In this document: in pieces, positions 4,684 to 36,253 of the stretch
How the letters are laid out: each line of letters starts with the position of its first letter
Position numbering within the stretch: position 1 is the first letter of the stretch
Virus record (IMG/VR): IMGVR_UViG_3300045988_161245
Location: 1-64,000 of that record
Reading direction: 5' to 3' (one strand)
Length of the DNA: 64,000 nt
Source: a virus
The notes under the pieces: generated by a model
Databases searched by the model: none
Told to the model about the DNA's origin: nothing
Seen by the model: only the letters and a program-made list of their open reading frames with translations
Program-made: the position numbers and the translations under genes

Positions 4684-5568
4684 TTACCTCGCTCCATTAA
4701 AATATTTTACAATCTGACTTCCAACCCAGCGTCCCATTGGAACGGCAACAGCATTACCAATCTGTCTATAAGCATCACTATCACTTCCACAAAATTCAAA
4801 CCAATCTGGAAAACCCTGTAGTCTTGCATACTCTCTGACTGTATATGGTCGGATTCTATTACCATCTTTAATTAATCTAGTTCCTCTATCTTTTGAATAG
4901 TGTGCTACACATGTTGGTGCAAGATCATCACATTCAGGATCAGAAACAATTGGTTTGTCTCTATAATTACCATTGATACGATTTAATACATACTGTGGAA
5001 TATTTACTTCACTGTCTTTTTGAATAATATCTTTCAAGCGTAAGGGAGTTTCGTCCGGATAATCCAGATTGATAAATGGCTTTTTGCTACCAATAAGAAT
5101 TAATCTCTTACGTTCTTGTGGTAGCCACATATTTGCGTTTACAGGACATTCGATTCTTACATAATAATCTGGTAACTTAGTCAGTGCCTCCATAACCACT
5201 TTAAATTTAATCATTCCAGGAACATTCTCAACTACATACATTTCTGGTTGTGCCAATGCAATATGTCTAAAGAAATGAAGAAATAAATCATCACCTGTTC
5301 TTGCGCCATTAATATCTGCAGCAGTTGAATATTTTGTACATGGAAAAGTTCCAATATACACATCTGCATCTTGCTGATCAAGAACTGTAATTTTAGTAAT
5401 ATCAGCTTCGTTAACCTTGTGCTTAAAATTTTTTCTTAACGTATCACAACATTTCTTATCAATTTCGTATGATTCAAGAATATTGATCCCTGCTTCTTCA
5501 ATTCCAAGATCCATTCCACCTGCACCACTAAAATAGCTTTTCGCTGTAATCTGCATTTTATTTTCCAT
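4684..5568 (-). CDS. DNA (cytosine-5)-methyltransferase
   Basis: Ordered C5-MTase motifs: FSGAGGMDLG (I), TFPCTKYS (IV, PC), VVENVPG (VI), QERKRLILIG (VIII), QIGNAVAVP (X). Confidence 0.9.
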   Translation of the reverse strand: MENKMQITAKSYFSGAGGMDLGIEEAGINILESYEIDKKCCDTLRKNFKHKVNEADITKITVLDQQDADVYIGTFPCTKYSTAADINGARTGDDLFLHFFRHIALAQPEMYVVENVPGMIKFKVVMEALTKLPDYYVRIECPVNANMWLPQERKRLILIGSKKPFINLDYPDETPLRLKDIIQKDSEVNIPQYVLNRINGNYRDKPIVSDPECDDLAPTCVAHYSKDRGTRLIKDGNRIRPYTVREYARLQGFPDWFEFCGSDSDAYRQIGNAVAVPMGRWVGSQIVKYFNGAR

Positions 5569-5925: not shown

Positions 5926-6718
5926 ACTTTTTTGGTTCCTTTCAATCTTTCTTCTGCAATATTGCAATATTCTTTACTAATTTCGAATCCAATATAACTT
6001 CTACCAAGTTCAATTGAAGCTTTCGCAGTAGTTCCACTTCCAATAAACGGATCAAGAACTAAATCGCCAGGATTTGACCATGATATAATATGGTCTCTGG
6101 CCAACTGCTCTGGAAATACAGCAGGATGCCCTGATTTTCCACCGCCAACACTGTACGTAAATATATTATTATGTATTTTCTCTGGCTTTACTGTATACAA
6201 ATCTGTCGTCCTATCTCTACGACATTGATTGTCATCCATAACAGTTTTTCTGTCTCCCCAATTAAACACTTTCCCAGCATTTTTAGTTGGGACCTTTATT
6301 GGATTAAATGTATTTGGTTTACCCTTACTGACACAAACATATACTCAAAACATTGTTCATAACGATTATGGTTTTGCGGAATTGGATTTGCTTTTTCAAA
6401 AATCATAGTATCATGCAGCTTGAATCCCAATTTCATAAACTGTAATGCCTGTTTGAACGATGTTCCTGTTTCAGATCCATTCTTAGTTTTATCTCCTACA
6501 ACCCAAACCAAAACACCACCTGGTTTAGTTACACGAAATAGCTCGTAAGAAATTGCATCAAAATCAAATGAGTATCCATTATATTTTCTCAAGTCATCAT
6601 ATGGTGGGCTTGTTACTGTAAGATCAATTACATCTGAGTCAAGTTTTTTTAACCCAATAAGGCAGTCTTCATTATAAATTTTATTTATTTCTAACATTTT
6701 ATATCCGGAGCAAACCAT
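5922..6718 (-). pseudogene. beta-class (N4-C/N6-A) DNA methyltransferase interrupted by a single frameshift
   Basis: ORF 6296-6718 carries TSPPYDD (motif IV). ORF 5922-6269 carries DPFIGSGTT (motif I). The -1 frame around 6330-6333 reads continuously MFV(V)SKGKPNTFNPIKVPTKNAGKVFNWGDRK. Confidence 0.8.
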
Positions 6719-6752: not shown

Positions 6753-7514
6753 TTATTTTCTTTTCAATAACAATTTTACATGTGTGTTATCATTAATATT
6801 GATTCCAAAGTCTTTTTCTACAATAGATTTTAAATATGGTAAACAATAAGTTTCAATATATGCAATTTCATAATCACTAGGAATCTTCTTTAATAATTCT
6901 TCTAAAGTAATTGGAAAATAATTTTCTTTTACTTCTCTATCCCAATTTTCTATATACTTATATTTCATAAGAAAATGTAGAAAGTTATTATTTCTCATAA
7001 GCGATCCCCAATTATGTTCAAAATCTCTAATTTGATTCTTATCTGCTGCATTTATTAATTTCCAATAATCTGTTATATTGGTAAATCTATAAACATTTTC
7101 AGAAATACACATATCACGAATTGAAACATAATCAAATCCAGATAAAAATACATTATCCCAGAACTCTTTAACTTCATCGGTACTACAATAGGAATATATT
7201 TCGTGAATTACACTTGATAAATTAAGTAAAGAATTTTTATTACAGATATCTTTTGGAAATATATTTGTATAATTAATATTTGATGTATCTACTGACTTAT
7301 TTCGTGCAATTTTAATCATTTCAGAATTATTGTCATATCCAATATAATTAATATCAGGAAGAACTTTATTCATTTCTCTAATTAAAGCTCCATCTGCACA
7401 TCCAAAATCCACAATATTTTTTACTTTTGAAATTTTATTCATAAAGAATAGCTTATCTTCACATGATTTTGCCATTCTGGACGTATATATACTAATATCT
7501 GAAATTTGATTCAT
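6753..7514 (-). CDS. class I SAM-dependent methyltransferase, substrate unknown
   Basis: VDFGCADGALIRE (motif I) followed by YIGYDNN and LSSVIHEIY; no DNA-MTase motif IV seen. Confidence 0.65.
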   Translation of the reverse strand: MNQISDISIYTSRMAKSCEDKLFFMNKISKVKNIVDFGCADGALIREMNKVLPDINYIGYDNNSEMIKIARNKSVDTSNINYTNIFPKDICNKNSLLNLSSVIHEIYSYCSTDEVKEFWDNVFLSGFDYVSIRDMCISENVYRFTNITDYWKLINAADKNQIRDFEHNWGSLMRNNNFLHFLMKYKYIENWDREVKENYFPITLEELLKKIPSDYEIAYIETYCLPYLKSIVEKDFGININDNTHVKLLLKRK

Positions 7515-7516
7515 AA

Positions 7517-8275
7517 TTATAATTGCTCCTTTATAGTCAAATACTTATCTTTGCCACTATATATAAATAACTTTTCAATAGCTTTTACTCTTTTTGTATT
7601 ATCAATAGTTCTTTTTACTTCTTGTTCCCAAATAGATTTCCAATCATCTGGCGCATTATGTTCACTAACAAGTACAATATTTCTTGTACTCATATCTTTA
7701 GCACAACTCCAGAAACGATCATAATCGAAATTTTTACTTGTTCCATATTGTTTTGTATTTTTATAAGGAATGTCACAGTACAACAAACATCCAGAAACAT
7801 TATTATAAAAATCTTCATAATCTCCATATTGAAATGAAATGTCTTTTAGATGTGGAATTTGTTCTAATAAATTTCTTTTTGCTTCATCATAATAATTTCG
7901 TTGTACTCCTGTTTTTGTAGTGATAATTCCACTATACCCACCATCAAAAAAACGACCGTTATAACTAGATAAAAATCCAACTGCACCAATATACCAATCT
8001 TGATACGTATTCAAATTATTATTAAAACATTCTCTTACTTCAGAATAATGCTCTTTATCAATAAAATCCGGCAACGTGTTAATTTTATTTAAATTATTGA
8101 ACATTGCGATAAGATATTTATGATTATCAGAAGCAATTTTGTTTTTACAACTTATTTTATCAATAATATTTGCTCCGCCCACAAATGGCTCTATATATGT
8201 ATCAATATTATTTTCATCAATATATCTCTGAATAATCGGAACAATATATTTCGCTATTCGAGATTTACTTCCCAT
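7517..8275 (-). CDS. Dam-like (D12 class) N6-adenine DNA methyltransferase
   Basis: MGSKSRIAKYI, EPFVGGANI (motif I) and CDIPY (DPPY variant) in alpha-class order; no Shine-Dalgarno sequence upstream. Confidence 0.8.
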   Translation of the reverse strand: MGSKSRIAKYIVPIIQRYIDENNIDTYIEPFVGGANIIDKISCKNKIASDNHKYLIAMFNNLNKINTLPDFIDKEHYSEVRECFNNNLNTYQDWYIGAVGFLSSYNGRFFDGGYSGIITTKTGVQRNYYDEAKRNLLEQIPHLKDISFQYGDYEDFYNNVSGCLLYCDIPYKNTKQYGTSKNFDYDRFWSCAKDMSTRNIVLVSEHNAPDDWKSIWEQEVKRTIDNTKRVKAIEKLFIYSGKDKYLTIKEQL

Positions 8276-8325
8276 ATATTTAATTTTTCTATACCAGAAA
8301 GTGACATGTCCTTAGTGCGCACCTA

Positions 8326-8340
8326 ACTTTTATCCTTTCT
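8326..8340 (-). repeat. leader motif copy 1 (plus-strand ACTTTTATCCTTTCT)
   Basis: Identical 15-mer recurs at 9287-9301 and as a 13/15 variant at 14917-14929, each in the 5' leader of an enzyme gene. Confidence 0.6.
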
Positions 8341-8382
8341 GATCATTTCATCAACATTACATCAATTATTTCCAAAACTTTC

Positions 8383-8625
8383 TCATACCATTTCTGGATT
8401 TTCTTTAAACATCTGTAAAAACTTCATTTCATCTTCTTTGCTAGTACACCACAGCTCCAGGTCTTCGCCGTGATTGCCGATCAGAGCGGAAACTGCTACA
8501 TACTGTGTCAATTTAGACTTGAGATTAAATTTATCTCCGTAAACGGATGTTAAAGTAACATTACCATTACACTCATCTACTACTTTAAGAAATGTTTCTA
8601 CATCTTTAATATTCTTAATTTTCAT
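8383..8625 (-). CDS. small protein with HPr/Crh-like sequence pattern lacking the His15 loop
   Basis: By eye, GNVTLTSVYGDKFNLKS...GEDLELWCTSKEDEMKFLQMF parallels HPr [15 protein letters not shown]...[13 protein letters not shown]; there is no HARPA active-site loop. Confidence 0.35.
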   Translation of the reverse strand: MKIKNIKDVETFLKVVDECNGNVTLTSVYGDKFNLKSKLTQYVAVSALIGNHGEDLELWCTSKEDEMKFLQMFKENPEMV

Positions 8626-8703
8626 TACACTTACCTATTTTCTCTCTATTCAATTTTCAAATAAAACGTGGATTTTCTGACAAGAATTTGCCAAATTAGA
8701 ATT

Positions 8704-9204
8704 CTATCTTACTAATGATTTTTCATAAAATTTTAACTCTTCTACAATTAAATCTCTTGGTAACAAATCTTTACAAAAATATGCAGTTGCAAATGGACTA
8801 CCTTTAATAACAATATCCATACTATCAGGTTTATGAAAACTAATCCTAGAATCAAAACTTAATAACTGTATTCCTTGCGTAAAGAATTTGAATCTTGTTT
8901 TACCCTGTAAAGAATTTAACGGTAAAAGAATTGCAAATGGCTTTTTAAATGAATATAATCTTTCCAACACCTTATCTTTACTAGAAAATGGAGGATTGGA
9001 AACAATCATATCCCATTTATTAGGCTCATACGTAAAAAAATCCTGACCATCTTTTAACGAACTTCTTACAACATTATATCCCTCTTCTTTTAATCTCCTA
9101 TAAAAAGCAGACCATTCTTCGTCAAAAGGACACCATATAATTTTATCCTTTGGAATATATTTCAAAATTGGATCTACAGCATAGAGGGGGGGTATATAAC
9201 TCAT
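8704..9204 (-). CDS. small NPPF-motif methyltransferase (putative N6-adenine)
   Basis: MIVSNPPFSSKD motif IV; 166 aa; sits in the MTase island; no Shine-Dalgarno sequence upstream. Confidence 0.6.
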   Translation of the reverse strand: MSYIPPLYAVDPILKYIPKDKIIWCPFDEEWSAFYRRLKEEGYNVVRSSLKDGQDFFTYEPNKWDMIVSNPPFSSKDKVLERLYSFKKPFAILLPLNSLQGKTRFKFFTQGIQLLSFDSRISFHKPDSMDIVIKGSPFATAYFCKDLLPRDLIVEELKFYEKSLVR

Positions 9205-12266: not shown

Positions 12267-12677
12267 TTATTTTGTTCTGATAAAAGTCTGATTCTGTAGG
12301 TCTACAATATATTCTTTTACATTTATTGTTTCATCTAAATTTTTAATATAGTCCTTTACATGAATAAGATTATTATCTTTCTCATCAATTTCAAATTGCG
12401 GTTTATTTAAATATAAGCCACAAATTTTATATTCCTTAAAATCTTTATAAATTAGTGTATAATTTTTAGAATCTTTAGATTTCGAAAAGAAAAGTGCTGT
12501 TTTATCGAAAATTGATTTATATGTGATTTCTCCAAGTTTACTTTCTTCCATAACTCGTTGAATGTCATTTATATCATCTCTGCATTTATTAAGTTCTTCT
12601 GGCATATTAGAAACCTTTCTTTCAAGCCTATTTAGTCTACAAACTAATTCTTCATATTTCTTCTTACTAATCCACAT
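12267..12677 (-). CDS. hypothetical protein (136 aa), last gene of the RNA-repair block
   Basis: ORF track; 4 nt downstream of the Pnkp-type gene. Confidence 0.6.
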   Translation of the reverse strand: MWISKKKYEELVCRLNRLERKVSNMPEELNKCRDDINDIQRVMEESKLGEITYKSIFDKTALFFSKSKDSKNYTLIYKDFKEYKICGLYLNKPQFEIDEKDNNLIHVKDYIKNLDETINVKEYIVDLQNQTFIRTK

Positions 12678-12681
12678 TATT

Positions 12682-14868
12682 CTATTTCTCCTTGTAAAAC
12701 ATTTTTCTTAAAGTAACAATATCTCTTGGCAACTCATCAGCTTTACCATTTTCAAACTGTTTCTTGCACCAAGCGTAAAATTCTTTTGCTACCGGCGTAG
12801 TCAACAATGATGTCCTGTTTGTATAACCTTTCTTTAAAGTCTCATGAGCAATACCACGCATAAACTTCCAGAAATTGTAATATGTAAGTTTCAGCTTAAC
12901 CATATATCCATTAGCATCTTCGATTACAAATCCTTCGATCTTATCACCTCTGTACTCATAATCTTCTTCTAAAACCTCAAAATACCAATCATAAAATTCC
13001 TGCCATGTAGATAACTCATAAGCCTGTTTCTTGATTGTTAGTCCAAGATCACGACCAACATGTGCCATATCCTCATAATTGTATTTCTGGAAATCCAAAG
13101 TATTGTATACAATATCAAGCAAAACCAACTTACTTTCTGGATAATCAATAATATGTGGATCATGCTCCATGTCGCAGCATTCGAATACAAAAGAGACATC
13201 GTTCTCCTTAATATACTTCTTCATCTTTTTAAGATTCTCTTCAGAAATTTTCGTATAAACCATATCTCTCAGCCACTCAGAGAATTCACCTTCAGGATCA
13301 GACTTGCTTGTAATAAATAAGTCATCTGTATATTCATTCCAGGAAACAATTCCCAAAAATCCATTTTCTTTAACATAGGCAGCTACTGGGAATTTTAATG
13401 TACGTTGTAGTGTATCAAATTTAGTCTCTTCACGCTCGTTAACAGAAAAGAACTTTTCGTATGCCCTGGCTACTACTTTATACTTCTCAGAAGTATCCAG
13501 AAACAGACCTCTCGCTCTAATTGTTTGTGCGTTCCATTTCTTTTCATAAAATGCTGCTGGCGTAAAATTGAACGAAGAGATATTACCAAACTGCTTTTCA
13601 GAAATATATTTGTTGTTCCTCAAAGAGATAATTGCATCAGCAACATTACTTCCTAATGTATCTTCTACTTTTTCAGGCTCTCTGAATACATTGTTCTTAA
13701 CCTCATAGGATATACTTCCACCAGGAACAATATCAATACATCTCAGACAGCCACCAAACTCAACCTGTCCTTCCAAATCGTATACTCTTGGATTAACATT
13801 AATATCAAATCCTTTAGTATTTCTATGACCAAAAATCTGATAAGTATGTTCATCAGTAGTGGTGATAAATGTATCAGCAACTTGCTCTACATCGTTATAT
13901 CTACCAATTCCATGAATCATTTGATCGGTTGCAACAAAAGTAAGATTTTGTGGGATTGTACTCAGACCACCGTGAGTAACAAGATATGTATTTCCATGAT
14001 ATGTATAATAGGCACACTGAGCAAATTTTCTACACAGCTGCCGAAGATCTTTCTTACTGAAACCGGCTTTATCTAATGCAGGTTTTGTAAATAATTCAAA
14101 TTCTTTTGAAAATGACTTCTTATCTTCGCTATATTTCCTTAGATGAATTTCGTGATTGCCCTCAAGCAAAAGTACGTTTGGTTTATCCTTAATGCTTAAG
14201 AGAAACTGAACCACTTCCGCATTTTCAATTCCTCTGTCAATATAGTCTCCGCAAAATATAAAGAAGTGATCGTCCTTGATACCGCCAATTGCGTTCAAAT
14301 ATTTCTGTAAAGCTGTATTACAACCATGTATATCTCCTACGTGATGAATCACTTTATATTCGGACAAATCAATCTTTTTCATAAACACTTTATCAAGTTC
14401 TTCCGGCTTAATTACTGTAATACCGGACGGAATTCCCTGTGTCTTAAACCTACTATACATCTTATCAATAACAGCTTCAGGTACCTGTTTCATTGCAGCA
14501 CGAAGACTATTTCTTTTCTTACATTCCTCGATTGAAACATCTGTAAAATCAACAAGAAAAATTCTGTATCTATACTCCTGACATAATTTCTTATATTTGT
14601 TCATTTCAGAAGTCTTGGAATTAGTTGCATCTATAACTGTAAATTCTCCACGCTGCATTCTAACTTCCAGTAAGCTAAATAACGTCTTCCAAACAGTACC
14701 ATCATTACTCTGTGTAATCTCTGTGTTACCATTTGCAGATAATACCGGACTCTGACAGAGTAAACGAATATCATCTGCACATAATGTATATGGTTTTAAC
14801 CCATTTTTCTCAATATAAGTGCTCTTGCCAACTCCTGGAGCACCACGAAGTAATAATAAAGTTCTCAT
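12682..14868 (-). CDS. pnkp: Pnkp-type RNA repair enzyme: polynucleotide kinase / metallophosphatase / RNA ligase-like adenylyltransferase
   Basis: GAPGVGKST P-loop; GDIHGC, GDYIDRG, GNHE and THGG phosphoesterase motifs; C-terminal KENGF (motif I Lys), IEGFVIED and VKLKL ligase motifs, in the bacterial Pnkp domain order. Confidence 0.85.
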   Translation of the reverse strand: MRTLLLLRGAPGVGKSTYIEKNGLKPYTLCADDIRLLCQSPVLSANGNTEITQSNDGTVWKTLFSLLEVRMQRGEFTVIDATNSKTSEMNKYKKLCQEYRYRIFLVDFTDVSIEECKKRNSLRAAMKQVPEAVIDKMYSRFKTQGIPSGITVIKPEELDKVFMKKIDLSEYKVIHHVGDIHGCNTALQKYLNAIGGIKDDHFFIFCGDYIDRGIENAEVVQFLLSIKDKPNVLLLEGNHEIHLRKYSEDKKSFSKEFELFTKPALDKAGFSKKDLRQLCRKFAQCAYYTYHGNTYLVTHGGLSTIPQNLTFVATDQMIHGIGRYNDVEQVADTFITTTDEHTYQIFGHRNTKGFDINVNPRVYDLEGQVEFGGCLRCIDIVPGGSISYEVKNNVFREPEKVEDTLGSNVADAIISLRNNKYISEKQFGNISSFNFTPAAFYEKKWNAQTIRARGLFLDTSEKYKVVARAYEKFFSVNEREETKFDTLQRTLKFPVAAYVKENGFLGIVSWNEYTDDLFITSKSDPEGEFSEWLRDMVYTKISEENLKKMKKYIKENDVSFVFECCDMEHDPHIIDYPESKLVLLDIVYNTLDFQKYNYEDMAHVGRDLGLTIKKQAYELSTWQEFYDWYFEVLEEDYEYRGDKIEGFVIEDANGYMVKLKLTYYNFWKFMRGIAHETLKKGYTNRTSLLTTPVAKEFYAWCKKQFENGKADELPRDIVTLRKMFYKEK

Positions 14869-14916
14869 CCTATCTTACCATCGTAAGAGCTGCGCGCAAT
14901 TATCCCTGGGACTCGA

Positions 14917-14929
14917 ACTTATCCTTTCT
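14917..14929 (-). repeat. leader motif copy 3 (ACTTATCCTTTCT)
   Basis: 13/15 variant of the 8326/9287 motif in the leader of the Pnkp-type gene. Confidence 0.5.
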
Positions 14930-14931
14930 TT

Positions 14932-15219
14932 TTATTCTCCTAACGTAATTTTTCTATATTCTTCCGGTGTAATTTCACCTTTTTGCAACTTAATCTCTAA
15001 ATCCAATTTATTACTTCTTAGATTTAGACCATTAAGCTCAGATAAATAGCCTCGGATCTCATCAATTGCATATTCATTGTTTATATGTTGTTTGCTCTGA
15101 TCAACCAATGTTTCTCCAATACAGGACCATGTATGATCATATTCTCTAATTAAATAAATCAAATCATCCCTTGTGAGCTTGTCTAAATTTTCTTTTACAT
15201 ACTCCGGGAAATCTTTCAT
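14932..15219 (-). CDS. hypothetical protein (95 aa)
   Basis: ORF track; between the Thg1-like and Pnkp-type genes. Confidence 0.6.
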   Translation of the reverse strand: MKDFPEYVKENLDKLTRDDLIYLIREYDHTWSCIGETLVDQSKQHINNEYAIDEIRGYLSELNGLNLRSNKLDLEIKLQKGEITPEEYRKITLGE

Positions 15220-15476
15220 AATAATTCACCTGTTGCTTTCTTAATATAATTTTTCTGACCTAATAACGGACACCAATTTGGAATTTTTGTATAATCTGGG
15301 ATAATGCTTATATTATCATTTTCATTTGCACCACAAACATACACATTTCCATGTAGTCCAAATTTCCAAAATAGACTTTCTGGACAATCATTGCAATGAC
15401 TTATTGTAAACGTAACTTCATTCATTTTATTATCTAACATCCTCTTTATCATCAACTTTTTCAAAATTGAAAACAA
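15216..15476 (-). CDS. hypothetical Cys-containing protein (86 aa)
   Basis: ORF track; HCNDCP...WCP; 4-nt overlap with the downstream gene. Confidence 0.55.
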   Translation of the reverse strand: MFSILKKLMIKRMLDNKMNEVTFTISHCNDCPESLFWKFGLHGNVYVCGANENDNISIIPDYTKIPNWCPLLGQKNYIKKATGELL

Positions 15477-15511
15477 GAAACTGCTTTTCTTTGTATACTT
15501 TCATTGCAATA

Positions 15512-16375
15512 TCACTCTCCAACGAATACTAAATCATCAATATAGCGGCGATCTTCGCCTTTAAAAATAGAAATATTCTTATCTACCACCCATTTGGTTC
15601 GTGTAATATCATCTTGGGCATATTCTTTTTTTACACAGCAGCTTCCACGCTTTTTATAAGTTATAGAATCGTTCCAGTTGATACCTTTTTCAGTTAATAA
15701 CATATTTAAAATATCATTACATGATTTATTGTGTAGCTCTTTATGTGAAAAATTTGCTTGTCCAACCATTTGAATAGAGTTGCGTGTGGCATCGAGTTGT
15801 CTCCAGTAGAAATAATTTGTCACTTCTTCTTTCGGAATGTTAAAACATCTTGAGTCAAACATTGCTCTGTTACACTTAGAATAATATTTATCATAATATT
15901 CGTCTTCTAATTTATCAAACATAGGATCTGCTTCTTCAGAACTAATTTCTTTATTAGTAATTTTTTCATTAATCTTTGCACATTTTTCTTGAAAACTAAA
16001 TTCAACATTATCATAAAAGAACTTATTAAAAGCTAAAGTTGCCATACTTGCTGATATAGAACAAAGTTTCTGTACTTCATAATCAAACCAAGCTGCAGTA
16101 TCTAATTTTTTATAATCAATAAGTAGTAAAGATATTTCGTCAGACTGAGTATATCCAAGTACACAGCCCTCTATATTTTCACATAAATATTTCATTGTAT
16201 CCTGCATTGTTTTAACTAAAATATCATCAAAAGGTTTATCAAATGAGCGACAAAATGTGTGAAATGCCCTACCATCAATCCTCAGTATAACTGGGCATCT
16301 TCGTATTAATTTTGTCTTTGGAATCTGCTCATAATAGTCTTTCATTCTTTTACCAAGATCATCATTTACTGGCAT
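15512..16375 (-). CDS. Thg1-like protein (tRNA-His guanylyltransferase family 3'-5' polymerase)
   Basis: ILRIDGRAFHTF, YTQSDEISLL, FDSRCFNIP and YWRQLDATRNS match Thg1 blocks VVRLDGRNFHRF, YGQSDEYSFV, FDGRVVVYP and SWRQADCHINN. Confidence 0.85.
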   Translation of the reverse strand: MPVNDDLGKRMKDYYEQIPKTKLIRRCPVILRIDGRAFHTFCRSFDKPFDDILVKTMQDTMKYLCENIEGCVLGYTQSDEISLLLIDYKKLDTAAWFDYEVQKLCSISASMATLAFNKFFYDNVEFSFQEKCAKINEKITNKEISSEEADPMFDKLEDEYYDKYYSKCNRAMFDSRCFNIPKEEVTNYFYWRQLDATRNSIQMVGQANFSHKELHNKSCNDILNMLLTEKGINWNDSITYKKRGSCCVKKEYAQDDITRTKWVVDKNISIFKGEDRRYIDDLVFVGE

Positions 16376-16819: not shown

Positions 16820-17053
16820 TTATTCTGCCCTCATATTCCATTTTTCAATAGCTTCATTCTTTGCTTTGGAAATTTCTATAGTCTCATCACTATACGAAAT
16901 ATCTTTTGTAATCGTACTTCCTTTTGCGTGGCATCTATTACACATTACATAAAAGCTCATCCTTACAATTTTCTTCCATGGATCTTTGAATTTTGTTTTG
17001 TGTCCAACTTTTAGTTTATCGCTCCCACAAAAGGGACATTTTAACAGTTCCAT
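16820..17053 (-). CDS. Lar-family restriction alleviation-like protein
   Basis: LKCPFCGSDKL...VMCNRCHAKG...AIEKWNMRAE fits the Lar-family pattern CPFCG...C..C...AI..WN.R. Confidence 0.55.
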   Translation of the reverse strand: MELLKCPFCGSDKLKVGHKTKFKDPWKKIVRMSFYVMCNRCHAKGSTITKDISYSDETIEISKAKNEAIEKWNMRAE

Positions 17054-21224: not shown

Positions 21225-21809
21225 TTAATCCTCTCCAAACAAATCCTGTGGTGCATCCTGAAGGTTGTCACCAAAGTCTAATAGTTTATAATCCTGTTTC
21301 TCGTATCCAAGAAAATCAAGAAACGTACTCTGTGGGAACGCACGAACATAACCATTATAAATTTTTACCTGTTTATTATAATTTTCTCTATAATTTGCGA
21401 TTAAATTTTCAGTTGTTGCCAACTCATTCATAAGCTGTTTATAATTCTCATTGGATTTTAATTCCGGATATGCCTCAGATACTGCCTTAATAGAAGTTTT
21501 GATTTCTGCAGCTTTATCGTCATCAGATGAACGACCGTCCACGATTGCCTTTAATGTATCATATTCATGTTTATCATAATTCTTTACGCAATCAACCAGG
21601 TTACCAAGTGAATCTACTCTTCGCTTTTCCTGAATATTTATGTCAGATTTTGCAGTTAACACCTGTTCTTCCATATTAATAGCTCTATTTTTATAGCTCT
21701 GAACTCCAAAGACAGCCATGAGAGCTACAGCAATAATAATTGCAATTGCGATTAATACCACTTTCCAACCGGTACCTCTACTTTTCATTTTTATCTCCTT
21801 TACCAACAT
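21225..21809 (-). CDS. lemA: LemA family membrane protein
   Basis: N-terminal TM helix, then QEKRRVDSLGNLVDCVKNY...AYPELKSNENYKQLMNEL..TENLIANYRENYN..V..YN...R.FP, typical of LemA. Confidence 0.8.
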   Translation of the reverse strand: MLVKEIKMKSRGTGWKVVLIAIAIIIAVALMAVFGVQSYKNRAINMEEQVLTAKSDINIQEKRRVDSLGNLVDCVKNYDKHEYDTLKAIVDGRSSDDDKAAEIKTSIKAVSEAYPELKSNENYKQLMNELATTENLIANYRENYNKQVKIYNGYVRAFPQSTFLDFLGYEKQDYKLLDFGDNLQDAPQDLFGED

Positions 21810-22063
21810 ATTTCATTTGTATATGTAGAATTTGTTTTCTTATTTAAACCAGCAAATTTATTTATTATTGTTTCTAATTCGCAGTTTTCATCAAATGATA
21901 ACAAATTCTGTGTTAATATTTCTACTAATAGCCTTAATACATACTTAGTATCATCCACACTACAAGAAAATAGTTCAGGATCTTCTACAGATAAAAACAA
22001 TCTTGCGTACTGATCGGATGATGCTAAATTATATAATTCTCTTTTTAACTTTTCTTTATCCAT
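21800..22063 (-). CDS. hypothetical protein (87 aa)
   Basis: ORF track; overlaps both neighbours (translational coupling). Confidence 0.55.
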   Translation of the reverse strand: MDKEKLKRELYNLASSDQYARLFLSVEDPELFSCSVDDTKYVLRLLVEILTQNLLSFDENCELETIINKFAGLNKKTNSTYTNEICW

Positions 22064-23162
22064 CTTTATACCTCAAAATATCATTGTGTGTTTCACCATC
22101 TGATTTATAAATATTCCAGCCTGAGAATAACTTCCCAAATTTATCATCATCTATTCTAAATTCGTTGCAATGCGTAATAGTAATAGATCTTTCACACTCA
22201 AAATCTCCTACATCTGCTATAACTCTCTGATAAAGTTTATTTAAATCTAGTTTTCCATATCTCAAAGTATCCTGATGATGGTTTGGAACATTTGTCTTAT
22301 CATACATTTCGGCATTAATTTCGTCTTTATTGCATTCTGTTGGAAACGGACCAGCACCATGTCTGGTTAAATATGTACGTGTTACATAACATACTTCTAT
22401 ATTTAATTCATCATTCCAATTTACTCTTTCAATAATTTCTTTTGGATTTTTCAGACCTGTGTTAGATGGGGTAAGATGTGGAAAGTATTTTAGATTGTTC
22501 TGATCGAGTAATAACCCTTGAGCGGCTTCAAAAATAATGTGATCAAATATATTTAGAAAGCTTTCATCCCTGGTTGTCTCAATATGGTCATTCATAAAAT
22601 CTAAGTCTTCAAGAAAATGTTCGTATATTCCTTGGTCGTTAAATAATTTTTTCCAACTATCAGATAACACAATTCCTTCTTTTTCAAACTTCTCAAGGTA
22701 ATAATCTTTTACCTTATCAAAATCGGTAATGTCACTTTCATACCTCTTAATGGTTTCAAAAATTCCTAACCCACAACTGCCATGCTTTTGTTTTCCACGA
22801 TTTTCTTCAACAATATGATTTGCCATCATATCGTAAGGTGTTGAAACCATACAGTCTGAATGAACATAAACAATAGGAACTACACCTTTATTTATCAGTT
22901 CTTTAAATTCTTGAACGAAAATAAGTGGATTTACAATGAATTCTTTTGGCAAATATGTAACAGCCCCATTAAAAGTTCCAGAACCAAAATGATGAAAGAC
23001 ATGTCTGATTCCGTCCGGTGTCATTACGGTATGTCCTCTTTGACTTCCACCATTAGAACACACTACAATACTATTAGGTTTCTGTGAAAAGTAATCAGTC
23101 ATTAAACCTTTTCCTTCATCTCCTGCATTTGCACCAATCACAATCTTAATGTCTTTCATCAT
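22056..23162 (-). CDS. short adenylosuccinate synthetase (PurA/PurZ) family enzyme, substrate uncertain
   Basis: GANAGDEGKG, NGGSQRGHT, HHFGSG, GSCGLGI, EAAQGLLLD and TRHGAGPFPTE match PurA blocks; 368 aa; the canonical GxTTGRxRR loop is not recognisable. Confidence 0.75.
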   Translation of the reverse strand: MMKDIKIVIGANAGDEGKGLMTDYFSQKPNSIVVCSNGGSQRGHTVMTPDGIRHVFHHFGSGTFNGAVTYLPKEFIVNPLIFVQEFKELINKGVVPIVYVHSDCMVSTPYDMMANHIVEENRGKQKHGSCGLGIFETIKRYESDITDFDKVKDYYLEKFEKEGIVLSDSWKKLFNDQGIYEHFLEDLDFMNDHIETTRDESFLNIFDHIIFEAAQGLLLDQNNLKYFPHLTPSNTGLKNPKEIIERVNWNDELNIEVCYVTRTYLTRHGAGPFPTECNKDEINAEMYDKTNVPNHHQDTLRYGKLDLNKLYQRVIADVGDFECERSITITHCNEFRIDDDKFGKLFSGWNIYKSDGETHNDILRYKDG

Positions 23163-29775: not shown

Positions 29776-30083
29776 TAGTGATACCTCAAATACTCAGATA
29801 AATTAAATAATTCATTTACTTTTTTCTCAAACTTTTTTACATTTAATAATGTTTTCAGTTGATCATCAGATAATTTTGTACATCTTTTCAACTCATCAAT
29901 TACCATCTGCATATTTTTTATCTCATTATTTTTAGAATCAAGTTCCCTTTGCATACTATGTATTTTGTCGTATAATTCAAATTTTACTGAATTCAGTTCA
30001 TGGTTTAATTCTCTGATTTGCTTTCTGAACTCAGCTCTTTCTTTTTCAAATGCTTTATCTTTTGCAGATAATTGTTTCTTCAT
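29775..30083 (-). CDS. coiled-coil-like protein (102 aa)
   Basis: ORF track; K/E/L-rich heptad-like sequence; 4-nt overlap with the ATPase gene. Confidence 0.55.
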   Translation of the reverse strand: MKKQLSAKDKAFEKERAEFRKQIRELNHELNSVKFELYDKIHSMQRELDSKNNEIKNMQMVIDELKRCTKLSDDQLKTLLNVKKFEKKVNELFNLSEYLRYH

Positions 30084-31039
30084 ACTAAATCATCCTCATT
30101 TGGGATCTGGAACACCTGGTCCTGATAATAGATAATCTTTGGTGGTTCGCCATCAATAATTTCCATCCTCTGTTTCGCTTGAACTTTGCTTTCTAACATT
30201 GTAAGAACCTTATCGATACTTTCCTGTTTGCTAAAACTTCCGGCAGGAATCTTATCGAAGTACAACACATATTTTTGTTTACCACCTTCAGTTTTTCTTT
30301 CTGAATAAACATCTGTTACATTAGCCAGATTAATAAATCTTTTTTCGTTCTGTGCTTTTATAAACATATTCATTCCTCCTTTCTTAACTCCATATCTTTT
30401 GTCTTTAATTTCCCTTGACTTGCAAATGAACTTTGAGTATTCGTCATAATTTTCAAATGTTCTGTACTTGCAGTTATAAACATCAAAACACAGTTCTTCA
30501 TTTGCAAACTCGTAAGCATTTGTTGAAACTATAATATAAATTTCAACTCCCTTTGACTTACAATCTTCTTCTATTATTGAAAACAGTTTGTTCTTAATTT
30601 CTTTAATTCCATCAATACTCAATCCACTATCTGCAGCATCAAAGAAAACCCATAGTTCCTTATTCTCTTTTGTCAATACACTTGTTACCGCTCTACCAAT
30701 TTTTGCAGCATAGTTTCCAATATTCATCAAAATATTTTCACCCTCGCTTGACATTACTGCAGTAGCTAAAAATGAAAAATCTCCTGTATATCCAGCCCAA
30801 CTTCGTGCGTTCTCTCCACCATCAAAAAGATTATTGAAACTTGTATATGTAATTTTTTCATTGTCCAACAGCCTTTTTAATTGTTGAATCAATGTTGTTT
30901 TACCAGATCCATTACATCCAACCAGGACTGTTAATCCAGAGTTAATTTCTATATTTGCCTTCCGGTATAATATTTGATCTTCTTCCCAATAGTTTCGGAT
31001 AATTTTAAATTTCCTGCTCAATACATTACATCCTTTCAA
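30080..31039 (-). CDS. ABC/SMC-like P-loop ATPase with degenerate Walker B and H-loop
   Basis: VGCNGSGKTT (Walker A), MSSEGEN (signature-like), WVFFDAADSGLS (Walker B-like with no Glu), IIVSTNAYE (H-loop position is Asn). Confidence 0.6.
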   Translation of the reverse strand: MKGCNVLSRKFKIIRNYWEEDQILYRKANIEINSGLTVLVGCNGSGKTTLIQQLKRLLDNEKITYTSFNNLFDGGENARSWAGYTGDFSFLATAVMSSEGENILMNIGNYAAKIGRAVTSVLTKENKELWVFFDAADSGLSIDGIKEIKNKLFSIIEEDCKSKGVEIYIIVSTNAYEFANEELCFDVYNCKYRTFENYDEYSKFICKSREIKDKRYGVKKGGMNMFIKAQNEKRFINLANVTDVYSERKTEGGKQKYVLYFDKIPAGSFSKQESIDKVLTMLESKVQAKQRMEIIDGEPPKIIYYQDQVFQIPNEDDLV

Positions 31040-31766
31040 ATTGACTCATTAAGTCGTCTGTTAACTCGTTCGTGTATTTAATATTAATATTCTGAGGATT
31101 CTGTATACTCTCTGACACTGCAACCATTCGCTCATATAATTTAGAGGATGTATTATTAGATATGATCATTTGTACAACGGCTAACTCGTTTTTAATTTGC
31201 CTTCTTTTTTTCCTTATCTCAAATAACTTCATTCTCTCCTTATATGCCATGGATGCATTTGGACGTTCATTATTCTCAATAACATGTAAGAAAACATCCT
31301 GCGCTTGATCTATTAGACTTAATTTCTTATAGAGATATTCCATTCGCTCTCTTGCTTCCTCTTTAATTCCATTGCAGCTATGTAATTTCTTGAGCCAATT
31401 ATCTATGTTATTGTTATGAGCTTCTTCTTTGATAATTGGTTTATTCTCAATTTTTTTCTCTTGCTTGACTTCTGGTTTCGCTTCTACGATCAGATTTTCT
31501 TTCAACTCTGTATAACATCCGGTTTTCTTTGCATGTTCAGCTGCTCTTTGAAGTATTTGTTCTTGTTTAATCTCGCATTCCGTTTTTCCTTCAATTAATG
31601 GCTCAATTTCAAACTTATACTTTTTTAGATTGTTTGGAGGATTTTTAATGAGATTTTTCGCCTTTTGCTCTTCAAAAGTTTTTGCACATATTTTGGGACC
31701 AAGTTTTATTTTGCTTTTTCTATCAAAATGAACATATTGATCACCACATCTAATTAAACAACTCAC
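31026..31766 (-). CDS. hypothetical protein (246 aa; GTG start)
   Basis: ORF track; 14-nt overlap with the ATPase gene; begins directly after the IS right-end repeat. Confidence 0.5.
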   Translation of the reverse strand: MSCLIRCGDQYVHFDRKSKIKLGPKICAKTFEEQKAKNLIKNPPNNLKKYKFEIEPLIEGKTECEIKQEQILQRAAEHAKKTGCYTELKENLIVEAKPEVKQEKKIENKPIIKEEAHNNNIDNWLKKLHSCNGIKEEARERMEYLYKKLSLIDQAQDVFLHVIENNERPNASMAYKERMKLFEIRKKRRQIKNELAVVQMIISNNTSSKLYERMVAVSESIQNPQNINIKYTNELTDDLMSQFERM

Positions 31767-31892: not shown

Positions 31893-32996
31893 CTAAGCTA
31901 CTTTTAACATTTTCACTCCTTCATTTAGAATGTTAATTGCAGCATTTATATCACGATCATGATGCGTTCCACATTGTGGACAATCCCATTCACGAACTAA
32001 TAAATCTTTAGTCTGTTTATTTATATATCCGCACACATTGCAAGTCTGTGAACTTGCGAAGAATTTATCCACTTTTATAACATCTCTTCCGTACCAATCG
32101 GCTTTATATGTGAGCTGTCGTACAAATTCAGACCATGAAACATCAGCAATAGACCTTGCAAGCCTATGATTTTTAATCATGTTTTTTACTTGTAAATCTT
32201 CAATACAGATCACATCGTTGTTCCTGATAATCTCAGTAGATAATTTTTGTAGAAAATCTTTGCGCTGATTTGCAATATGCTCATGAAGTCTGGCAACTTT
32301 AATTCTTGCTTTATTACGATTTGAACCACCTTTCGATTTTCGAGATAGTTTTCTTTGCAATTTAGCAAGCTTGCATAATGACTTCCTAAGATATCTTGGA
32401 TTTTCAATCATTTCACCATCAGAAGTAATACAAAATTCTTTAATTCCAAGATCAATCCCAATTGAACTTCCAATCTTTTCTAATGGTTTTATATCTACGT
32501 CAGTACAACAGAGTGATACGAAATATTTTCCACTAGGCTCTTGTGATACAGTTGCATTAAGTATCCTGCCTTGTGGTATCAACTTGTTTTTCGTTTTTAC
32601 CATTCCAAGTTTAGGTAACTTAATATACTTATTACAATACTGAATATTCCCATTTACACATTTTGACTTATATGAATATCTATGTGTTTTCTTTGATTTA
32701 AATTTCGGATATCCTGTATGTTCTTTGAAGAATTTTTGATAAGCCGAATCTAAGTCTCTAAGCGAAGATTGAAGAGCAGTGGAATCAACTTCTTTAAGCC
32801 ATTTCAATTCAGTTTTAAGTTTTTTCATATCATTTGCACATTGCGCATATGCAAAAGTCTCTTTATTCTTTTCGTATATCTCAATTCTTTTTGCAAGATA
32901 TGTATTATATACAAATCTACAGTAACCAAATGTTTTGGCAATAATCTCTCTTTGTTTCTTGTTTGGATATATTCTATATTTGTAAGCTTTTTCCAC
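31893..32996 (-). CDS. tnpB: TnpB (IS605 OrfB family RNA-guided endonuclease)
   Basis: [11 protein letters not shown]-terminus; GIDLGIKEF (RuvC-I D), [10 protein letters not shown] (E), CNVCG...CPQCG zinc finger, [11 protein letters not shown] (RuvC-III D). Confidence 0.9.
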
Positions 32997-34651: not shown

Positions 34652-36253
34652 TTACGCTGTCTTATTTTCTTTATATGTCAAATATGAATTAAAATCTTCT
34701 TTCATATCATCGAGAAGTTTCTGTACATCATTCTCTGGTTTTGTACACTGGAAAGCGTAATCTTTAAACCAATTAAGAGCATCTGTATTTGTATCGTTGT
34801 CATATGTATATTTTACGAATCCTACCATTGCAGGAACGTATTTTGCCTTGAGAAGTGTAGTACCGGCTGGAAGCTCCAGACTCCATTCATTCACTTCATC
34901 AAGATACAGATCCACATCTTCAATATTATCTTCTGTATATTCATCAGCAGTGATAAATTCCTGAATTGCCTTATCAGAGAAATTTGTCTTTCCACATACT
35001 GCCATAAGTGTCTGTGCAGCAATACGATCAATATCACTTCCCATTGGAATACCAAGTGCTTCCATTAACTCTGTGTTCTCAAACTTTGTTGCAAATGCAT
35101 CAAATCTGTCTGTTGTCTCAAAAGATTCAACAATATCTTCCTTATTAATAGAAAAGAAATCCATCATAAGAGATTCAAGATACTCTAATTTGCCAAAGAT
35201 TGTATTTCTGTTCTTTGTAGATTTATTTCCCTTAATTTCATCGAAAGATTCTCCATTAATTTTGGTTTCTCTTAACCCACCAATAAATGCCTCTAAAAAC
35301 TCTTTAAACTTAGAATCATCCATTTCAAGTTTTGAGAATTTATCGAATAAAGCAATCCACATTGGCGCATCTTTTTTCTCAAAAAGTTTTGAAAGTTCAT
35401 CGTTGTCTTCAACTAATGCATACATTCTTCCAAGATAGTTATCGAGAAGATTAAACTGTTCTTTTTCACCATTTGTTTCCACATACAAAGCATTTTTCTC
35501 TGCATTACTTTTCCATTCATCTTTAAAAAAGATAATCATTACAGTATCAAGCATTACTCTCTCTGGATCACTGTTCTTTTCAGAAGCTCCATGATAACAC
35601 GGAAGCTCTTTAAAGAATGGATTGGAACTCATAATTTCTTTTGTCCATTTTGCAGTCTGTTCCATATATGTAACGGATTTCTGATTTTTATTCATACTCT
35701 TCTGATTGTTATATCTTCGAATATGATAACCCATTCTACTTTCTGTACAGTTTGAATGCTCTACATAAATTACTTTGTAATTATTAAATCTTTCCTTAAG
35801 CTCCATAGGAAGATCTTTATAACGTTTTCCACGAAGATCAAACTCTAACTCTTCCATAATTGGATAGCCATCTTCATCTTTAACTACATTTCCGTTTTCA
35901 TCCTTTTTTGCTGACTCGTATGGAACAATGTAATTTTCAAGATTTTTCCCAAGAGCAAACACATTATTATAGAAATTATTCCATGTTTCAAATCTGTTTC
36001 CACCATCTACAATCCACTTTTGAGATGGTTTGCCTTCTCGAATTTCTTCACAGATTTTTACTGGATCAATATCTTCACCTTGTACAGTTGTTACAATTGC
36101 CTGGTCACGAATCTGATTATTCCACTGAGTAGATTTTCTCTGCAGCCAAAAGTCTCTTCTAATTTCACCTCTATCCAACTTACCAAGAAGAGTCTTAAGA
36201 AATTTCTGATCTCTTACCATTTTTTCGTTTTTGTTTGGTCTGATACATAACAT
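34652..36253 (-). CDS. DUF262/ParB-like nuclease-domain protein (533 aa)
   Basis: N-terminal LQRKSTQW...IVTTVQGEDIDPV...WIVDGGNRFETW fits the DUF262 pattern (QR..vW ... DGqQR..T); no His-Me/DUF1524 motif seen at the C-terminus. Confidence 0.5.
   Translation of the reverse strand: MLCIRPNKNEKMVRDQKFLKTLLGKLDRGEIRRDFWLQRKSTQWNNQIRDQAIVTTVQGEDIDPVKICEEIREGKPSQKWIVDGGNRFETWNNFYNNVFALGKNLENYIVPYESAKKDENGNVVKDEDGYPIMEELEFDLRGKRYKDLPMELKERFNNYKVIYVEHSNCTESRMGYHIRRYNNQKSMNKNQKSVTYMEQTAKWTKEIMSSNPFFKELPCYHGASEKNSDPERVMLDTVMIIFFKDEWKSNAEKNALYVETNGEKEQFNLLDNYLGRMYALVEDNDELSKLFEKKDAPMWIALFDKFSKLEMDDSKFKEFLEAFIGGLRETKINGESFDEIKGNKSTKNRNTIFGKLEYLESLMMDFFSINKEDIVESFETTDRFDAFATKFENTELMEALGIPMGSDIDRIAAQTLMAVCGKTNFSDKAIQEFITADEYTEDNIEDVDLYLDEVNEWSLELPAGTTLLKAKYVPAMVGFVKYTYDNDTNTDALNWFKDYAFQCTKPENDVQKLLDDMKEDFNSYLTYKENKTA

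Follow-up and report, generated by a model that had tools for sequence, protein, structure and literature searches.

The DNA analysed here is a 64,000-nucleotide stretch (the window; positions 1 to 64,000 of the IMG/VR virus record IMGVR_UViG_3300045988_161245) of a large gut phage, whose relatives are 130-230 kb long. It encodes two proteins predicted to act on RNA ends, namely a 728-residue fusion of a polynucleotide 5'-kinase, a 2',3'-phosphoesterase and an ATP-dependent RNA ligase (hereafter the fusion), and a Thg1-like protein (TLP) encoded nearby on the same strand. Judged by its sequence, the fusion is a three-in-one RNA end-repair enzyme of a known phage gene family, and its putative ligase module appears Trl1-like in features that go beyond the general fold. 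The TLP is by the same kind of evidence of the bacterial type, its nearest characterised relative being the TLP of Bacillus thuringiensis (BtTLP). Taken together, the data are best explained by two separate RNA-end enzymes located in an accessory, probably early or counter-defence, region of the phage genome, in which the fusion is probably self-sufficient and the TLP an optional cassette.

Layout of the block

The window has a G+C content of about 31% and every gene of the region is on the minus strand. The five open reading frames (ORFs) named in a first-pass annotation, which had been made from the letters of the sequence, were all found on this strand at exactly the positions it gave. The main features are as follows.

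12267-12677, minus strand: ORF of 136 residues
12682-14868, minus strand: fusion ORF of 728 residues, predicted heal-and-seal fusion of 5'-kinase, 2',3'-phosphoesterase and ATP-dependent RNA ligase (Pfam and phrog_8238)
14389-14868, minus strand: predicted kinase module of the fusion, residues about 1-160 (P-loop G9-S16, D32/D33 and R35; AAA_33)
13684-14376, minus strand: predicted binuclear metallophosphoesterase module of the fusion, residues about 165-395 (Pfam Metallophos; lambda phosphatase 1g5b)
12685-13611, minus strand: predicted Rnl1/Trl1-type ligase module of the fusion, residues about 420-728 (PF09511 and domain-profile matches in the PDB)
14932-15219, minus strand: ORF of 95 residues, between the TLP and the fusion
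15216-15476, minus strand: ORF of 86 residues with a TTG start, overlapping the 95-residue ORF by 4 nucleotides
15512-16375, minus strand: TLP ORF of 287 residues, separated from the fusion by the two small co-directional ORFs; predicted templated 3'-5' nucleotidyltransferase (Pfam Thg1; BtTLP; carboxylates D34, D79 and E80)
15872-16015, minus strand: insertion in the TLP, residues about 121-168, a predicted helical hairpin (gap between the stretches matched by BtTLP; AlphaFold2)

The genes of the block point the same way and follow each other closely, 4-63 nucleotides apart except for the single 4-nucleotide overlap, and no minus-strand terminator-like site was detected between 11500 and 18000. 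A near-identity search of the block DNA against cultured phages gave no match, and the exact protein sequence of the fusion is not on record in the assembly index.

The fusion protein and its healing modules

Pfam resolves the fusion into AAA_33 (residues 4-142, E = 3.6e-19), Metallophos (residues 174-313, E = 1.8e-15) and RNA_lig_T4_1 (PF09511; residues 452-664, E = 2.2e-41, 142.6 bits against a threshold of 28.3), which is the order of kinase, metallophosphoesterase and ligase that the first-pass annotation had deduced from motifs. The whole protein is covered by a single PHROGs family, phrog_8238 ('RNA ligase'), with residues 1-727 aligned to positions 1-732 of the 737 in the profile (E = 3.9e-222). 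The kinase and phosphatase motifs are located at GAPGVGKS (residue 9), DDIR (32), GDIHG (178), GDYIDRG (207), GNHE (237), HGG (299) and GHR (347), and those of the ligase at KENG (500), EGFV (645) and KLK (658). Every motif that had been quoted for the fusion and for the TLP is present in the translations, and the family and structure searches gave Thg1, kinase, metallophosphatase and RNA-ligase matches far beyond chance. Among solved structures, the kinase module resembles the kinase domain of Clostridium thermocellum Pnkp (CthPnkp; 4gp6 and 4jst, E about 1.7e-7), while the phosphatase module matches lambda phosphatase (1g5b), the PP1, PP2A and calcineurin structures, and the NinI-like Ser/Thr phosphatase families. 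The catalytic motifs are intact and invariant across the relatives of the fusion, including the P-loop, D32/D33 with R35, all phosphoesterase motifs, and K500, E563, E645 and K658/K660 of the ligase.

This gene family is abundant, with at least 3844 proteins at E <= 1e-10, all having the same three domains. Within it, the fusion of the window belongs to a gut-metagenome lineage whose members are 86-96% identical to each other. Homologues are present in 231 cultured-phage records, 113 of them at full length, and the carriers comprise Twort-like and other Staphylococcus phages, SPbeta-like Bacillus phages, and phages of Brochothrix, Lactobacillus and Fusobacterium. One homologue of 905 residues (P0061; 89% identical over 60% of the query) has additional NUMOD1, NUMOD4 and HNH_3 domains, which suggests a homing-endonuclease insertion in, or a fusion to, its gene.

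Type of the ligase module

The first-pass annotation had described the fusion as a bacterial Pnkp-type enzyme without Hen1, the subunit with which bacterial Pnkp is normally encoded. Hen1 is indeed missing from the neighbourhood, as no methyltransferase lies within the block, but the Pnkp framing was mistaken, since only the kinase-phosphatase half is Pnkp-like and the ligase is of the Rnl1/Trl1 type. The NCBIfam model bacter_Pnkp (TIGR04075) aligns with the kinase and the phosphatase only, over positions 9-324 of 851 and with 72.2 bits against a cutoff of 750. When the ligase domain alone was compared with all PDB sequences at an E limit of 10, it retrieved fungal Trl1 ligase domains (Trl1-LIG) only. 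A ligase-domain profile of 11 diverse family members, including those of Twort and of the SPbeta-like phage Goe11, matched Trl1-LIG with E-values from 4.5e-28 to 2e-17 over the adenylyltransferase and C-terminal parts and T4 Rnl1 with 1.7e-9 over the adenylyltransferase part; the same profile found no match from the Pnkp/Hen1 system in the PDB. Ligase motifs I, III, IV and V correspond to K500 (KENG), E563, E645 (EGFV) and K658/K660, respectively. The profile alignment extends through the C-domain of Trl1-LIG (to 353 of 384 and 394 of 407 positions), a region where the confidence of the AlphaFold2 model is low. This model of the 728-residue fusion, built from a small alignment (21 sequences, none below 65% identity), has a mean predicted local distance difference test (pLDDT) score of 57.6, with values below 50 in the ligase part, and it was set aside for the fold search. 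In the classification of Banerjee et al., Pnkp-C/Hen1-N corresponds to clade Rnl4, T4 Rnl1 to Rnl1 and Trl1-LIG to Rnl6, and both T4 Rnl1 and Trl1-LIG seal without a Hen1-like subunit (PMC6379707). With a ligase of this type the absence of Hen1 thus needs no explaining.

The likeness to Trl1 may include a set of residues that Banerjee et al. describe as unique to the Trl1 clade, a His-Arg-Arg triad (PMC6379707). The profile places H572, K668 and R671 of the fusion opposite His227, Arg334 and Arg337 of CthTrl1, so that the first Arg is replaced by Lys, and all three are invariant in the 11-sequence family alignment, Twort and Goe11 included. The CthTrl1 triad binds a sulfate that mimics the terminal 2'-PO4, and its mutants adenylylate RNA 60- to 580-fold slower (PMC6379707, PMC11404444), a 3'-OH,2'-PO4 end being required for sealing by Trl1-LIG (PMC11404444).

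The Thg1-like protein

A genuine member of the Thg1 family with an extra segment had been claimed at 15512-16375, and Pfam, BtTLP and Foldseek all bear this out. The protein matches Pfam Thg1 (PF04446) with E = 1.1e-28 and 100.2 bits against 29.2, and phrog_4717 with E = 2e-88. Its best solved relative is BtTLP (4kgk, E = 7e-63), aligned over residues 5-120 and 163-285 on either side of the insertion; matches to eukaryotic Thg1 are weaker than this, at about 1e-8 for the human and Candida proteins and 3.5e-10 for that of yeast. The motifs RIDG and SDE are found at residues 32-35 and 78-80, respectively, YWRQ at 190, and the segment QEKCAK...YYSKC of the insertion at 129-168. The essential carboxylates of BtTLP are D30, D75 and E76 (PMC3701042), and they align with D34, D79 and E80, which are invariant in 30 relatives. 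The AlphaFold2 model of the TLP has a pLDDT of 79.8, and a Foldseek search of the PDB with it gave Thg1 or TLP structures for each of the top 32 matches, led by 4kgm (E = 2e-21, 38% identity, template modelling score of 0.83 when normalised to the target).

In the model, the insertion lengthens one helix and adds another, giving helices at residues 98-140 and 146-165 with pLDDT of about 90. It is the segment of the TLP that varies most in length and sequence among relatives, and it is absent from BtTLP and from the TLP of Staphylococcus phage PMBT8. The insertion is a feature of a very large clade of gut-metagenome TLPs of 263-305 residues and is not peculiar to the window.

Linkage of the fusion and the TLP in relatives

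Coupling of the two genes, as proposed in the first-pass annotation, stands as far as their linkage is concerned, which exceeds the base rate, but it is facultative, as the TLP is missing from most fusion loci and its slot can be occupied by other genes. A TLP gene lies within 10 kb of the fusion gene in 17 of 117 fusion loci, comprising 16 of 82 from IMG/VR, all on the same strand, and 1 of 35 from GTDB. This is well above the base rate of TLP genes in phage genomes, which are found in 161 of 50,697 cultured-phage records, and the linkage recurs in different arrangements, with about nine spacings on both sides of the fusion (-0.65/-0.83, +0.8, +1.9, +2.0/+2.6 with RlaP between, +3.8, +3.9, +7.8, +8.1 and +9.3 kb). 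Judged from counts by organism name, the cultured phages with the fusion and those with the TLP overlap little, mainly in Fusobacterium phages and possibly in one Staphylococcus group. In Fnu1 and PMBT8, tblastn and annotation revealed no fusion within 12 kb of the TLP.

Closer to the window, the gene order is a 69-residue ORF, the TLP, the 86- and 95-residue ORFs, the fusion and the 136-residue ORF. Nine IMG/VR contigs have a fusion that is 89-96% identical to that of the window; four of them keep this order, and in the other five no TLP lies within 10 kb. Relatives as close as 89-93% identity may lack the TLP or have another gene in its position. One of them, from ENA (L003, 90% identical), has a PcfJ-like gene of 374 residues and a 165-residue ORF in the TLP slot (7046-8664); in its behaviour this is a site of exchange for accessory genes. 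Elsewhere too, genes of the PcfJ-like type are found repeatedly in the vicinity of TLPs or fusions. A TLP 93% identical to that of the window (P0127) is present on at least 294 contigs, and in the places shown its arrangement relative to the fusion is the same in six of six.

More distant loci point to a broader neighbourhood of tRNA-related genes. Among the 82 IMG/VR fusion loci, RlaP is found in eight and a CCA-adding enzyme in two, and in a lineage with 66% identity RlaP, the CCA-adding enzyme and the fusion stand in a row. In several other loci retrieved with the TLP, RlaP adjoins the TLP, with or without the CCA-adding enzyme, and tRNA genes, sometimes in large arrays, are present in 45 of the 209 fetched loci. 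The 35 GTDB relatives lie on contigs that nearly all come from Lachnospiraceae, including isolates of Acetatifactor muris and Coprococcus aceti. Linkage of the fusion and the TLP is real, yet it is a minority and optional arrangement within a loose tRNA-maintenance neighbourhood and does not constitute a fixed operon.

Small flanking ORFs

It had also been suggested that one of the small flanking ORFs could be the partner taking the place of Hen1. This was not borne out, as none of them accompanies the fusion as a conserved neighbour outside the closest clade, and nothing in the sequence comparisons suggests that the fusion requires one of them. The 136-residue ORF starts 4 nucleotides downstream of the fusion and has a weak coiled-coil-like match at its N-terminus. 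In relatives with at least 89% identity it always lies 4-8 nucleotides downstream of the fusion or overlaps it, and it was undetected in lineages beyond that clade; at the corresponding place Twort and Goe11 have ORFs to which it shows no homology. Some close relatives, whether or not they have the TLP, encode the 95-residue ORF (L003, L024, L014-16 and L023), and others that keep the fusion do not (L011-13 and L017). The Cys-rich 86-residue ORF is similarly patchy, and its sole match is a weak one that covers part of a model for anaerobic ribonucleotide reductase (E = 8e-4). Searches of Pfam, PHROGs, NCBIfam and PADLOC with the three ORFs gave nothing above threshold.

A translationally coupled but unrelated downstream ORF recurs in Twort and in the clade of the window. 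In Twort, the small ORF104 (L208, 8255-8626) overlaps the last 11 nucleotides of the fusion gene, and an overlap of this kind is also seen in the window's clade; the downstream small ORF of L003 (12210-12635), a member of that clade, has no sequence similarity to ORF104.

Restriction alleviation and DNA methylation genes around the block

The block is flanked by genes of a kind consistent with the counter-defence setting that had been proposed for it:

16820-17053, minus strand: Lar-like restriction-alleviation protein (PF14354, E = 4.7e-12; phrog_599)
4684-5568, 6296-6718, 6753-7514, 7517-8275 and 8704-9204, minus strand: methyltransferase cluster (family matches)

The Lar homologue is conserved upstream of the fusion in close relatives. 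The methyltransferase cluster comprises a C5 cytosine methylase, a D12 N6-adenine methylase, a generic class I S-adenosylmethionine (SAM)-dependent methyltransferase and two weak DNA-methylase-like ORFs. The class I enzyme (6753-7514), about 5 kb away from the block, had been put forward for a test of whether it acts on RNA 3' ends. As a Hen1 candidate it was rejected, as it gave generic SAM matches, no NCBIfam Hen1 match and no PDB match, and lies inside the DNA-methylase cluster; in relatives (L214-L218) it likewise stays beside DNA methylases.

Proposed function and alternative explanations

The domain identities, intact catalytic motifs, family memberships and neighbourhood patterns described above are direct observations, and from them we infer what the enzymes would act on, a role in counter-defence and any hand-off from the kinase to the TLP. 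In the proposed mechanism, the kinase of the fusion would phosphorylate 5'-OH RNA ends, the metallophosphoesterase of the lambda/CthPnkp type would remove 2',3'-cyclic or 3' phosphates, and the Rnl1/Trl1-type ligase would seal the break via lysyl-AMP on K500. The likeliest substrates would be tRNAs nicked by host anticodon nucleases or by toxin or defence RNases, and tRNA ends healed by the CthPnkp kinase-phosphatase are known to be readily sealed by T4 Rnl1 (PMC1920235). The TLP would extend tRNA 5' ends in the 3'-5' direction with the 3' strand of the acceptor stem as the template, and hence might either rebuild 5'-truncated tRNAs or add G-1 to tRNA-His. BtTLP repairs 5'-truncated tRNAs of many kinds, which are its preferred substrates (PMC3701042). 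The fusion and the TLP would not form an obligate two-part machine, and neither a Hen1-like nor a small-ORF partner would be needed; they may be neighbours because this phage group collects tRNA-maintenance genes (the fusion, the TLP, RlaP, the CCA-adding enzyme and tRNA arrays). A counter-defence role would be in keeping with the Lar gene, the DNA methylases, the neighbours that restore tRNA ends and the co-directional block of small, mostly unassigned genes.

Several points weigh against this reading. The 64-kb window contains neither a tRNA gene nor an identifiable tRNA nuclease target, and no experimental work on either protein or any close relative was found in the literature. To our knowledge, no defence nuclease truncates tRNA 5' ends, which makes the repair substrate of the TLP hypothetical. 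The fold of the ligase module is taken from sequence profiles, because the AlphaFold2 model is poor in this part. About 85% of the fusion loci have no TLP within 10 kb, and conversely 10 of 80 loci retrieved with the TLP have a fusion within that distance, leaving about 87% without one. The adjacency of the fusion and the TLP could be partly incidental, should accessory genes merely tend to cluster.

Alternatively, the TLP could be a tRNA maturation enzyme that adds G-1 opposite C73 of tRNA-His, its adjacency to the ligase reflecting a shared tRNA-metabolism neighbourhood, an explanation which we regard as possible though on balance doubtful. Database names for the TLP family (tRNA-His guanylyltransferase) accord with it, as does templated addition by bacterial TLPs, which fits G-1 opposite C73 (PMC3701042). 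In three loci (L137, L138 and L140) a cluster of fusion, RlaP and TLP lies about 7.5 kb from a tRNA array, with 19 genes in L137 and 26 in L140, and the tRNA-His of the L137 lineage (L137, 2050-2121) has T at -1, C at 73 and no encoded CCA; G-1 is thus not encoded there, and the TLP could add it. However, this is the one lineage with a tRNA-His that was examined, the close relatives scanned have no tRNA gene at a distance of up to 10 kb from the pair, the window has none either, and the closest characterised relative, BtTLP, prefers 5'-truncated tRNAs of many kinds. Loss of the TLP within the clade would also be unexpected if a phage tRNA depended on it, unless the tRNA varies too. The model of the first-pass annotation, an obligate coupled operon in which a Pnkp-type enzyme, a small ORF replacing Hen1 and the TLP act together against one host tRNase, has in its favour the tight co-directional packing without a terminator-like site, the 136-residue ORF that always follows the fusion in the closest clade, and the possibility that the kinase supplies the 5'-monophosphate needed by the TLP, as proposed by Anantharaman, Iyer and Aravind in 2010 (PMC2904730). 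It has largely failed the comparative tests, and we consider it very improbable: the ligase is of the Rnl1/Trl1 type and not the Hen1-dependent Rnl4, the 95- and 86-residue ORFs are missing from relatives with 89-93% identity that keep the fusion, the 136-residue ORF is undetectable outside the clade, and the TLP is absent from most fusion loci, with the PcfJ-like gene in its slot in L003.

An action of the fusion mainly away from tRNA, on phage mRNA, on DNA ends in replication or recombination, or as a phosphatase on proteins, also seems improbable. The phosphatase module does match NinI-like Ser/Thr phosphatase families and the PP1, PP2A and calcineurin structures, and some homologues are deposited as 'serine/threonine protein phosphatase' or 'polynucleotide kinase'; yet the three modules are invariably fused in the same order across thousands of homologues, all ligase and kinase catalytic motifs are invariant, the repeated neighbours are tRNA enzymes (RlaP, the CCA-adding enzyme and the TLP) together with tRNA genes, and the same phosphatase clade in CthPnkp heals RNA 2',3'-cyclic phosphate ends (PMC1920235). 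A bolder variant of the tRNA-repair reading holds that the ligase is a viral member of Rnl6 that seals 3'-OH,2'-PO4 ends and, with the optional TLP, makes up a multi-lesion tRNA repair kit against host tRNases, which we think rather unlikely. In the CthPnkp phosphoesterase a His-to-Asp mutation gives a 2'-PO4 product (PMC1920235), and its counterpart in the fusion, H181, is kept, which argues weakly against a requirement for 2'-PO4 ends. Pfam matches to Tpt1/KptA, RlaP or a CCA-adding enzyme were not found in 40 ORFs of the window, a scan that did not extend to intergenic regions and short ORFs, and no Tpt1/KptA is listed in the Pfam neighbourhoods of the relatives. We know of no established substrates of the bacterial Tpt1/KptA enzymes. 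Were this variant true, a eukaryote-like tRNA ligation that leaves a 2'-PO4 at the junction would operate in phages of Firmicutes, and Trl1-like sealing by phages would offer a source of substrates for bacterial Tpt1/KptA. The Trl1-like features of the ligase could interest RNA-ligase enzymologists. The Trl1-like triad and the tRNA-His without encoded G-1 near a TLP are the two leads most worth testing.

Physiologically, if tRNA repair by the fusion and the TLP is the correct reading, very common large phages of the human gut would carry a compact tRNA-mending kit, and tRNA-cleaving immunity or toxins would be a regular hazard in their hosts, which are probably Lachnospiraceae. Phage TLPs offer a tractable route to the in vivo role of bacterial-type TLPs, a long-standing question, and related genes are available in cultured Fusobacterium, Staphylococcus and Bacillus phages.

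Relation to known systems

The closest counterparts of the fusion are the cultured members of phrog_8238 (Twort ORF008, SPbeta-like Bacillus phages and Brochothrix phage A9 gp147), which are collinear with it over their full length, have the same domain order and differ only by sequence divergence, with 38-46% identity over 99-100% of the fusion; no characterised member of this family was found. Bacterial Pnkp of C. thermocellum (TIGR04075) has the same kinase, the same lambda-type phosphoesterase and the same overall order, whereas the ligase of the fusion comes from another clade (PF09511) and has no Hen1 neighbour. Trl1-LIG and T4 Rnl1 are the best solved relatives of the ligase module and have motifs I, III, IV and V in common with it, but Trl1 is arranged as ligase, kinase and cyclic phosphodiesterase, an order that is reversed in the fusion. 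The healing phosphoesterase differs as well, being a metallophosphoesterase in the fusion, a 2H cyclic phosphodiesterase in Trl1 and a haloacid dehalogenase (HAD)-type phosphatase in T4 Pnkp. T4 Pnkp and Rnl1, which act against damage by the anticodon nuclease PrrC, constitute the same three virus-encoded chemical steps, which for the fusion are predicted from sequence; T4 divides them between two proteins, with the kinase fused to a HAD (DxDxT) phosphatase, while here a single polypeptide with a metallophosphoesterase would carry them out. The same three steps are also virus-encoded in baculovirus ORF86, a trifunctional ligase-kinase-phosphatase. As for the TLP, BtTLP (4KGK/4KGM) and phrog_4717 have the same catalytic D/D/E, to which the TLP adds a predicted helical hairpin of about 45 residues.

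That the combination had not been characterised, as the first-pass annotation supposed, holds insofar as no experimental study of a phage TLP or of the fusion was found in the literature consulted, of which the survey by Burroughs and Aravind (2016) was not part; its novelty was overstated, since the idea had been predicted by comparative genomics in 2010 and 2021. Anantharaman, Iyer and Aravind (2010) found that bacterial Thg1 has a polynucleotide kinase as its most persistent neighbour, in some cases together with an RNA ligase; they proposed a role in tRNA repair in which the 5' phosphate would come from the kinase, and considered that one phage Thg1 might serve for repair 'against host defenses' (PMC2904730). 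Likewise, Iyer et al. (2021) described phage RNA-repair kits with Rnl1, Rnl2 or RtcB ligases, kinases, phosphatases, RlaP, CCA-adding enzyme and sporadic Thg1, with brief mention of a few calcineurin-like phosphatases (PMC7824862). In the text consulted, the two papers do not describe a kinase-metallophosphatase-Trl1-like fusion beside a TLP in gut phages. No concept is changed by the present findings, as both enzymes are members of phage families already catalogued and the idea of a repair kit has been published.

Further genes of the window and host association

A tyrosine integrase is encoded in the window at 43651-44673 (minus strand), and relatives of the fusion with 57-65% identity (L173-L207) are located on contigs of Lachnospiraceae isolates and metagenome-assembled genomes. 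Together these point to a lifestyle that is temperate or associated with the host in some other way, and to a host range within Lachnospiraceae, a family-level hint to the uncultured host.

Another gene pair could be a phage-borne defence or exclusion system. It is composed of an ABC/AAA_15-type ATPase (30080-31039, minus strand), with weak N-terminal matches to AriA (PARIS), GajA and PtuA (best E = 4e-9), and an overlapping upstream ORF (31026-31766, minus strand). Some defence systems of the PARIS, Gaj and Ptu types target tRNA. Two TnpB/IS605 OrfB-type genes (31893-32996 and 37115-38287, both on the minus strand) lie within 6 kb of each other in the phage region and have HTH_OrfB_IS605, OrfB_IS605 and Cas12f1-like TNB domains. 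A few kb from the TLP, the window encodes a 368-residue homologue of adenylosuccinate synthetase (22056-23162, minus strand) that is conserved in relatives (L038, 7685-8776; L213-L218). A PurZ-like role, which would mean 2-aminoadenine DNA, gained no support, the PurZ model reaching 36.5 bits where the cutoff is 300; PurA models score higher, at 94-106 bits, also below their cutoffs. The adjacent ORFs of 299 and 201 residues had no family match. A LemA-like protein (21225-21809, minus strand) matches NCBIfam MamQ below the cutoff, with Pfam LemA found at the equivalent position in relatives, and a 533-residue protein (34652-36253, minus strand) has a weak PADLOC match to NsnA (E = 2e-5).

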